Source of the DNA: Escherichia coli | GTDB taxonomy: Bacteria > Pseudomonadota > Gammaproteobacteria > Enterobacterales > Enterobacteriaceae | Length of the DNA stretch: 64,000 bases | Reading direction: 5' to 3' (one strand) | NCBI RefSeq assembly: GCF_003334815.1 | Contig: NZ_QOWO01000008.1 | Shown here: piece after piece, positions 13,596-13,696 of the stretch | Layout of the letters: each line of letters begins with the position of its first letter | Position numbering within the stretch: the first letter of the stretch is position 1 | Translations under genes and position numbers: made by a program | The notes under the pieces: model-generated | The model's database searches: none | What the model was told of the DNA's origin: nothing | The model's input: only the letters and a program-made list of their open reading frames with translations

Positions 13596-13696
13596 AACTT
13601 ATACAGAGTTACACTTTCTTACATAACGCCTGCTAAATTATGAGTATTTTCTAAACCGCACTCATAATTTGCAGTCATTTTGAAAAGGAAGTCATT

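Follow-up and report, generated by a model that had tools for sequence, protein, structure and literature searches.

Several kinds of described element resemble parts of the interval between holE and yobB in Escherichia coli. The sites of OmpR/PhoB-family regulators consist of direct half-sites, as at ompF and ompC for OmpR and in the motif GTAAA-N5-6-GTAAA for CpxR. The interval contains a box of this kind, with direct half-sites 10 bp apart and an OmpR ChIP-exo peak over it, and this box ends 9 bp upstream of a -10 element, a position like that of pho boxes. It also contains a perfect palindrome which, unlike such boxes, is an inverted repeat, lies downstream of the box, is unconserved and forms no part of that site.

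The palindrome shares with Rho-independent terminators the position of a stem-loop downstream of a stop codon. Those terminators have a G+C-rich stem, a loop of 3-8 nt and a U-tract, whereas the stem here is AT-rich, the loop is 14 nt long and there is neither a U-tract nor a 3' end listed under holE (+ strand) or yobB. A further likeness is with leader and intercistronic hairpins that sequester a Shine-Dalgarno (SD) sequence and expose the RNA to Rho, as an upstream pyrimidine tract is predicted to pair with the ribosome-binding site of yobB and a Rho-dependent region lies inside that gene. Unlike in riboswitch- or sRNA-controlled Rho termination, no ligand, sRNA or covariation is known at the locus, and the switching would lie in which promoter is used, with either read-through from holE or initiation at the yobB promoter. 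Finally, mutagenesis by template switching at quasi-palindromes has been described in E. coli (PMC7202029, PMC6357072). The repeat is like such hotspots in that an imperfect repeat appears to have been perfected, A13642G, C13660A and C13662T each copying the complement of the other arm. It differs from them in that the changes are distributed over at least three steps, with intermediate alleles still in the population, instead of one clustered event, and the drift alternative stands here, given the 0.5 perfect repeats expected per window. We use "the window" for the whole stretch of DNA analyzed, 64,000 nucleotides in length.

The holE-yobB interval and its inverted repeat

The window belongs to the E. 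coli chromosome, and all 5,426 of 5,426 complete genomes are matched by a query of 1.2 kb taken from the surroundings of the repeat. The genes yobA, holE, yobB and exoX are annotated at the locus in every one of them, which bears out the names holE, yobB and exoX assigned in a previous reading made from the letters of the window (hereafter the sequence-only reading). Window coordinates correspond to MG1655 U00096.3 coordinates minus 1,911,743; the features discussed below are listed in Table 1.

The sequence-only reading had reported a perfect 11-bp inverted repeat with a 14-nt spacer between holE and yobB, about 40 bp after the holE stop and about 27 bp before the yobB ATG. A repeat search recovered the same structure, with arms complementary at 11 of 11 positions, beginning 39 nt past the stop codon and ending 26 nt ahead of the ATG. 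Folding lengthens the stem by CTGC/GCAG (13630-13633 with 13671-13674), with one bulged T, and the extended hairpin has a predicted energy of -14.3 kcal/mol (z -5.9). To set this against expectation, the whole window was shuffled with preservation of dinucleotides. On average, a shuffle of the 64-kb window held 0.52 perfect inverted repeats with arms of 11 bp or more and a spacer no longer than 30 nt, and 34% of the shuffles held one or more of them. Taken alone, the repeat is no more than chance.

The repeat sequence is single-copy, occupying a median of one place per complete E. coli genome, and is therefore not an extragenic repeated element; REP/BIME and similar palindromes were ruled out on this basis. 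A search of Rfam at a permissive E-value returned only sub-threshold matches to eukaryotic miRNA and snoRNA families. The best of them, mir-216, reached 26.3 bits where 53.5 are needed and can be put down to a generic hairpin artefact. Elsewhere in the window there are four more perfect inverted repeats with arms of 11 bp or longer and short spacers, at 993-1020, 17258-17296, 20338-20366 and 22927-22976, which makes five loci observed against 0.5 expected.

Table 1. Features of the holE-yobB region, in window coordinates
Feature	Position	Strand	Remarks
holE	13365..13595	+	Stop codon 13593-13595; no intrinsic terminator after the gene
OmpR ChIP-exo peak P13, yobB-exoX	13600..13652	.	PMC5438342, supplementary table 1, 1923367-1923419 (U00096.2); mode 'Rep', signal-to-noise 2.01
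Tandem direct repeat GTTACACTTTCTTACAT, OmpR-type box	13608..13624	+	Conserved; minus strand GTAA-N6-GTAA, CpxR-like
Pyrimidine tract ACTTTCTT in the box	13613..13620	+	Candidate anti-SD in read-through RNA (MFE structures, pair counts)
Extended hairpin CTGC-t-left arm / right arm-GCAG	13630..13674	+	Form expected in read-through RNA
Extended -10, TGcTAAATT (TGCTAAATT)	13631..13639	+	Overlaps the left arm
Left arm AAATTATGAGT	13635..13645	.	Covers 5/6 bases of the conserved -10 hexamer and the stretch up to the predicted start
14-nt spacer (hairpin loop)	13646..13659	.	Holds the predicted start (~13646) and the mapped yobB 5' end (13658)
Right arm ACTCATAATTT	13660..13670	.	About +15 to +25 of the yobB leader
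yobB Shine-Dalgarno region AAGGAAGT	13685..13692	+	Conserved across spacers
yobB (carbon-nitrogen hydrolase family)	13697..14353	+	ATG 13697-13699

Conservation of the spacer across genera

For comparison across genera, 80 loci encoding HolE were taken, one genome per species, and yobB and exoX were then located in each. The alignment comprised 50 distinct holE-yobB spacers, from Escherichia, Salmonella, Citrobacter, Kluyvera, Trabulsiella, Pseudocitrobacter, Pluralibacter, Enterobacter, Buttiauxella and others. Outside E. coli, the palindrome was found in none of the 50 aligned spacers. Its left side, AAATTATAAGT, is kept in E. whittamii and in Escherichia sp. E1V33, the right side of which is unrelated. 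When the helices of the E. coli palindrome were projected on the 50 spacers they were 30-50% paired, against 42-50% for controls slid by 1-3 columns. Mean identity to E. coli across 49 orthologues was 0.56 in the left arm and 0.47 in the loop, and no more than 0.32 in the right arm, which is the least conserved segment of the holE-yobB spacer; the box and the SD region reached 0.84 and 0.85, respectively. The left arm consists of five of the six -10 bases followed by the next six bases, and only two of its columns, A13635 (100%) and T13639 (98%), were conserved across the 49 orthologues. The sequence-only reading had proposed to follow the palindrome through the orthologous spacers and had named loss of the arms as the outcome that would count against a function; the arms are indeed not kept.

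The conserved blocks of the spacer are the tandem direct repeat, the extended -10 and the yobB SD region together with its 5' flank. Two more conserved blocks were noticed, ATTCTTAA (TTTTCTAA in E. coli) at 13647-13654 and GACAC (GTCAT in E. coli) at 13674-13678. Since the pairing partners of ATTCTTAA differ between Citrobacter, Salmonella and Enterobacter, something other than pairing is probably behind its conservation.

Variation within E. coli and origin of the perfect form

The segment 13625-13680 is identical in 835 of 5,417 complete E. coli genomes (~15%), whilst one or two differences were counted in 4,177 genomes and three or more in 405. Twelve variants, sampled across the range of identity, were used to compare the arms. 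All twelve carry T13662C in the right arm and six also carry A13660C; a compensating change in the left arm was found in none of the twelve. The natural alleles weaken the predicted hairpin from -14.3 to -9.5 and -8.5 kcal/mol. In E. albertii and in the clade I genome the right side reads CCCCATAATTT, and in E. albertii, E. whittamii, Salmonella and Citrobacter the left side has TATAAG instead of TATGAG, G13642 being derived in E. coli and clade I. Because of these states in the relatives, the K-12 form is, as far as the alignment tells, the derived one, with A13642G, C13660A and C13662T each adding a pair to a presumed ancestral repeat of 7 bp. The A13642G change also makes a four-codon mini-ORF on the + strand (ATG AGT ATT TTC TAA, 13640-13654), which lacks a preceding Shine-Dalgarno sequence and which, among the spacers examined, occurs in E. 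coli and the clade I genome only.

The three stem-building changes would have arisen through drift or through template switching at the quasi-palindrome. By our own rough estimate, drift yields about 0.05 cases per window of three pair-creating substitutions. An argument that three such substitutions prove selection was considered and dropped, since the site had been chosen for its perfection and drift outcomes occur at that rate; for the same reasons neither selection nor template switching is claimed as proven. On balance, we lean towards the view that an old quasi-palindrome of 7 bp was perfected recently, in one lineage, and that the palindrome is a by-product with no dedicated operator or terminator function, placed by accident over the core promoter and the start of the yobB leader. 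Some observations run against this view. All three substitutions towards K-12 make pairs, which could reflect selection for the stem, and the spacer folds far better than its shuffles (z -4.75 in E. coli; mean -1.94 over 50 orthologues). As a by-product, the palindrome would still offer a worked example of a perfect palindrome arising stepwise from a quasi-palindrome within one species.

A conserved box of the response-regulator type upstream of yobB

The box is formed of two direct half-sites 10 bp apart (GTTACAC-TTT-CTTACAT), of which the columns TTAC..TT.CTTAC are at least 90% conserved across the 50 spacers. Compared with motifs taken from PMC5438342 and PMC9600279, it agrees with the OmpR repeat GTTACATTTTGTTACAT (PMC5438342). 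The pattern GTAA-N6-GTAA occurs once in the window, at the box itself, and about one occurrence is expected through chance. The motif match alone is thus weak evidence for a response-regulator site, and the weight of the box comes from its conservation, its absence where yobB is absent and the published data. Genera without yobB lack the box. The conserved regulatory site of the spacer is most likely this box and not the palindrome.

The statement in the sequence-only reading that no regulator has been described for yobB-exoX is out of date, as the unit is an OmpR ChIP-exo target, belongs to the CpxR iModulon and, in a citation of EcoCyc, is assigned Nac and phospho-OmpR. Seo et al. 2017 reported yobB-exoX as a new unit of the OmpR regulon (PMC5438342). 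Their peak is centred on the box, touches the left arm and ends before the right arm, and in the ompR deletion yobB rises from 39 to 367 FPKM, i.e. 9.4-fold (PMC5438342). Although yobB is a member of the CpxR iModulon, no CpxR peak was found there (PMC7657598). A passage in PMC10100675 cites EcoCyc as giving Nac and phospho-OmpR as regulators of yobB. The position of EcoCyc's Nac site for yobB was looked for and not located.

The genes spy, htpX, yebE and yobB are Cpx-responsive. As all four rise in the ompR deletion (PMC5438342), the 'repression' by OmpR may be indirect, via activation of Cpx in the ompR mutant. The joint rise suggests such an activation together with cross-binding of OmpR to CpxR-type boxes. 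A sequence resembling the yobB box, CTTTACATTTTGTAGCAT, is present at window ~944-971, upstream of htpX, and is covered by the second of the weak 'OmpR-repressed' ChIP-exo peaks in Seo 2017 (htpX, signal-to-noise 1.89).

OmpR-P and/or CpxR-P bound at the box, where a -35 element would normally lie, would set the transcription of yobB-exoX. The control region of this unit, poorly mapped so far, can now be placed: a conserved box of OmpR/CpxR type stands 9 bp ahead of an extended -10 that is likewise conserved, and the box agrees with the published OmpR peak.

The yobB promoter overlaps the left arm

The extended -10 is found nine base pairs downstream of the box. TAnnnT is present in 45 of the 50 orthologous spacers and TGn stands directly upstream of it in 43, with inner bases that vary freely, a pattern typical of a sigma-70 extended -10. 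A constitutive-promoter peak has been reported in the holE-yobB spacer by SELEX with the RpoD holoenzyme (PMC3946193). The start predicted from this element falls at ~13646, the first base of the spacer of the repeat. The yobB 5' end has been mapped at 1923425(+), i.e. window 13658, with 4 reads and a 39-nt 5' UTR (Kim et al. 2012 TSS table); it lies 19 nt past the extended -10, compared with the ~7 nt expected for sigma-70. A third start, near 13688, is implied by the distance of -62 given by Seo 2017 (PMC5438342). The start-site evidence is thin, with one position predicted, one mapped by few reads and one implied. RNA polymerase would use the extended -10 and start near 13646 and/or 13658.

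The predicted and the mapped start both fall within the spacer of the repeat, and with any of the three starts the mRNA made from yobB's own promoter is without the left arm, so that the hairpin cannot form in it. A hairpin in the leader RNA of yobB, as suggested from the sequence, therefore does not hold for RNA from the yobB promoter, which is predicted to be unusually open (z +1.3 to +1.5), and holds for RNA reading through from holE only.

A consensus promoter scan found nothing in this region, and other candidate promoters were rejected. In the alignment, the hexamers of the promoter TATACA-16-CATAAC of Shimada 2014 do not show the conservation of a -10, and the extended -10 was preferred. 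CATAAT in the right arm, considered as the -10 of yobB, is absent outside the Escherichia coli/albertii lineage. A minus-strand promoter on the left arm (CATAAT; TATAAT in relatives) was also set aside: the mapped antisense start is at 13564 and is driven from inside holE.

Other roles considered for the palindrome and its hairpin

Two roles for the palindrome itself were weighed, as an operator and as a transcript end. A dimeric or tetrameric regulator, e.g. Nac, might occupy the two AT-rich arms, whose centres are 25 bp apart, and control yobB-exoX. We regard such an operator, proposed in the sequence-only reading, as extremely improbable. The symmetry is perfect in the K-12 lineage and the OmpR ChIP-exo peak extends to the left arm; that peak does not cover the right arm, however, and a half-site spacing of 25 bp is atypical for helix-turn-helix dimers. 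The arms are conserved in no other genus, pair at the background level (30-50%) across the alignment and have a right-arm identity of 0.32. Within the species the repeat is perfect in 15% of E. coli, the other 85% of genomes differing from K-12 in 13625-13680, with a right-arm mismatch in 12 of 12 sampled variants. The citation of EcoCyc for Nac, in the passage mentioned above, speaks for an operator. Yet the Nac consensus ATA-N9-TAT occurs at the arms only with mismatches and at chance frequency. As for a transcript end, the hairpin could be a weak intrinsic terminator of holE or a 3' hairpin that blocks exonucleases. Its energy of -14.3 kcal/mol would suit either, and in the first three columns of the Cho 2014 supplement, whatever these represent, the array values of holE exceed those of yobB by ~3 units. 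Against this, the hairpin is not conserved, its stem has 2 G-C pairs in 11, its loop is of 14 nt and no U-tract follows, the sequence directly after the stem being GCAGTCATTTTG, nothing like a T-run; the sequence-only reading had rightly judged it an unconvincing terminator for want of such a run. A consensus terminator scan of 13100-14000 returned 0 sites. By gene name, the Term-seq 3'-end tables of Adams 2021 (supplementary files 1 and 3) hold no entry under holE (+ strand) or yobB, and among the rows listed in one sheet there is nothing between 1925232 and 1929972. The only holE entry in these tables is an antisense 3' end. A role as transcript end thus appears very unlikely, and as a candidate operator or terminator the palindrome would be of no importance, a strain-level sequence accident. 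As for yobB, it appears solely in the Rho table, with a Rho-dependent termination region inside the gene (1925695(+), i.e. window 13952, score 2.97, p 7e-7; Adams 2021, PMC7815308, supplementary file 2). It would fit transcripts, or at least some of them, on which yobB is poorly translated.

Transcripts that enter from holE raise a further question, that of the larger fold around the repeat. As no terminator follows holE, some read-through into yobB is likely. In that RNA a long imperfect hairpin (13613-13692), with the repeat at its tip, might insulate yobB-exoX from the transcription of holE, a proposal that we put forward tentatively. It is equally doubtful, if conceivable, that read-through RNA would not be translated for yobB and would be ended by Rho inside the gene, RNA started at the promoter being translated. 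The predicted hairpin base pairs ACUUUCUU, in the box, with the Shine-Dalgarno sequence AAGGAAGU (MFE, z -4.75). The same MFE architecture of the spacer is found in most genera (mean z -1.94, with 24 of 50 below -2). The unpaired probability of the E. coli SD is 0.011 in read-through RNA, compared with 0.69-0.77 in RNA starting at 13646 or 13658; over the 50 orthologues it averages 0.26 in read-through RNA and 0.77 in RNA from the predicted start, and 0.62 after shuffling of the 5' segment, and in 31 of them at most 5% of the shuffles match the occlusion observed. In six of 15 lineage groups (Escherichia, Salmonella, Trabulsiella, Pseudocitrobacter, the Pluralibacter group and Enterobacter), the 5' half of a spacer gains 4-15 kcal/mol by pairing with its cognate 3' half instead of a non-cognate one. 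Conservation of the TTCC that separates the half-sites of the box is about equal to that of the half-sites, more than a regulator site alone would account for, and Enterobacter sp. Ag1, which has no box, carries an anti-SD TCTTCCTT elsewhere and its SD is likewise occluded. The Rho-dependent region at 13952 and the lack of a listed + strand 3' end for holE also favour insulation, and removing or breaking the apical stem in silico lifts the accessibility of the SD from 0.01 to 0.2-0.4. However, covariation supports neither this outer helix nor the palindrome: over the 50 sequences the pairs that flank an invariant or near-invariant core of 5 bp are often broken, and RNAalifold on 24 sequences gives -3.5 kcal/mol with 0 compensatory pairs. 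The effect is absent in Kluyvera, Buttiauxella and several Citrobacter, and the regulator box largely accounts for the conservation of the 5' strand, as the ribosome-binding site does for the 3' strand. Nor is the perfect palindrome needed. The ancestral-like allele gives the same prediction: with it, with both natural variants and with the perfect repeat the unpaired probability of the SD is 0.011-0.012, and all natural alleles behave alike in silico. Even if the helix matters, then, the perfect palindrome does not. The testable idea is that the box doubles as an anti-Shine-Dalgarno tract that keeps holE read-through RNA from expressing yobB-exoX. If true, one stretch of 17 bp would be both the DNA site of a response regulator and an RNA anti-Shine-Dalgarno, with the yobB promoter under stress control.

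Antisense RNA in holE and loss of yobB

An antisense start has been mapped inside holE at 1923331(-), i.e. window 13564, with 231 reads compared with 29 for holE itself (Kim 2012), and an abundant antisense 3' end at 1925232(-), i.e. window 13489 (Adams 2021, PMC7815308). Together they imply an antisense RNA of ~76 nt on the minus strand in holE. Folding predicts no structure for this RNA (13489-13564; z +0.63), and Rfam holds no match to it. With its position 44-60 bp upstream of the antisense start, the box could serve both divergent promoters.

Loss of yobB has occurred repeatedly among the HolE loci (L005-L014, L041, L044, L047, L061, L065, L075 and L004). In Kosakonia and Phytobacter, exoX begins 11 nt after holE, and in Klebsiella and Raoultella a 78-nt spacer appears, from a by-eye match of conserved strings, to keep the 3' end of yobB. 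In E. albertii, tblastn finds the C-terminal third of yobB only (residues 144-218) in a holE-exoX interval of 422 nt, and the spacer of this species has a 22-bp tandem duplication (AATGGCTGCTAGATCATAAGCT twice) across the -10 region. Outside Escherichia, YobB is 32-72% identical, compared with 73-95% for HolE or ExoX. In Escherichia sp. MOD1-EC7003, the closest non-coli genome (locus L001, 2732-3229), an 84-nt spacer appears to be without the usual ribosome-binding region AAAGGAAGT and the YobB match covers residues 1-137 only; yobB may be decaying in this genome too.
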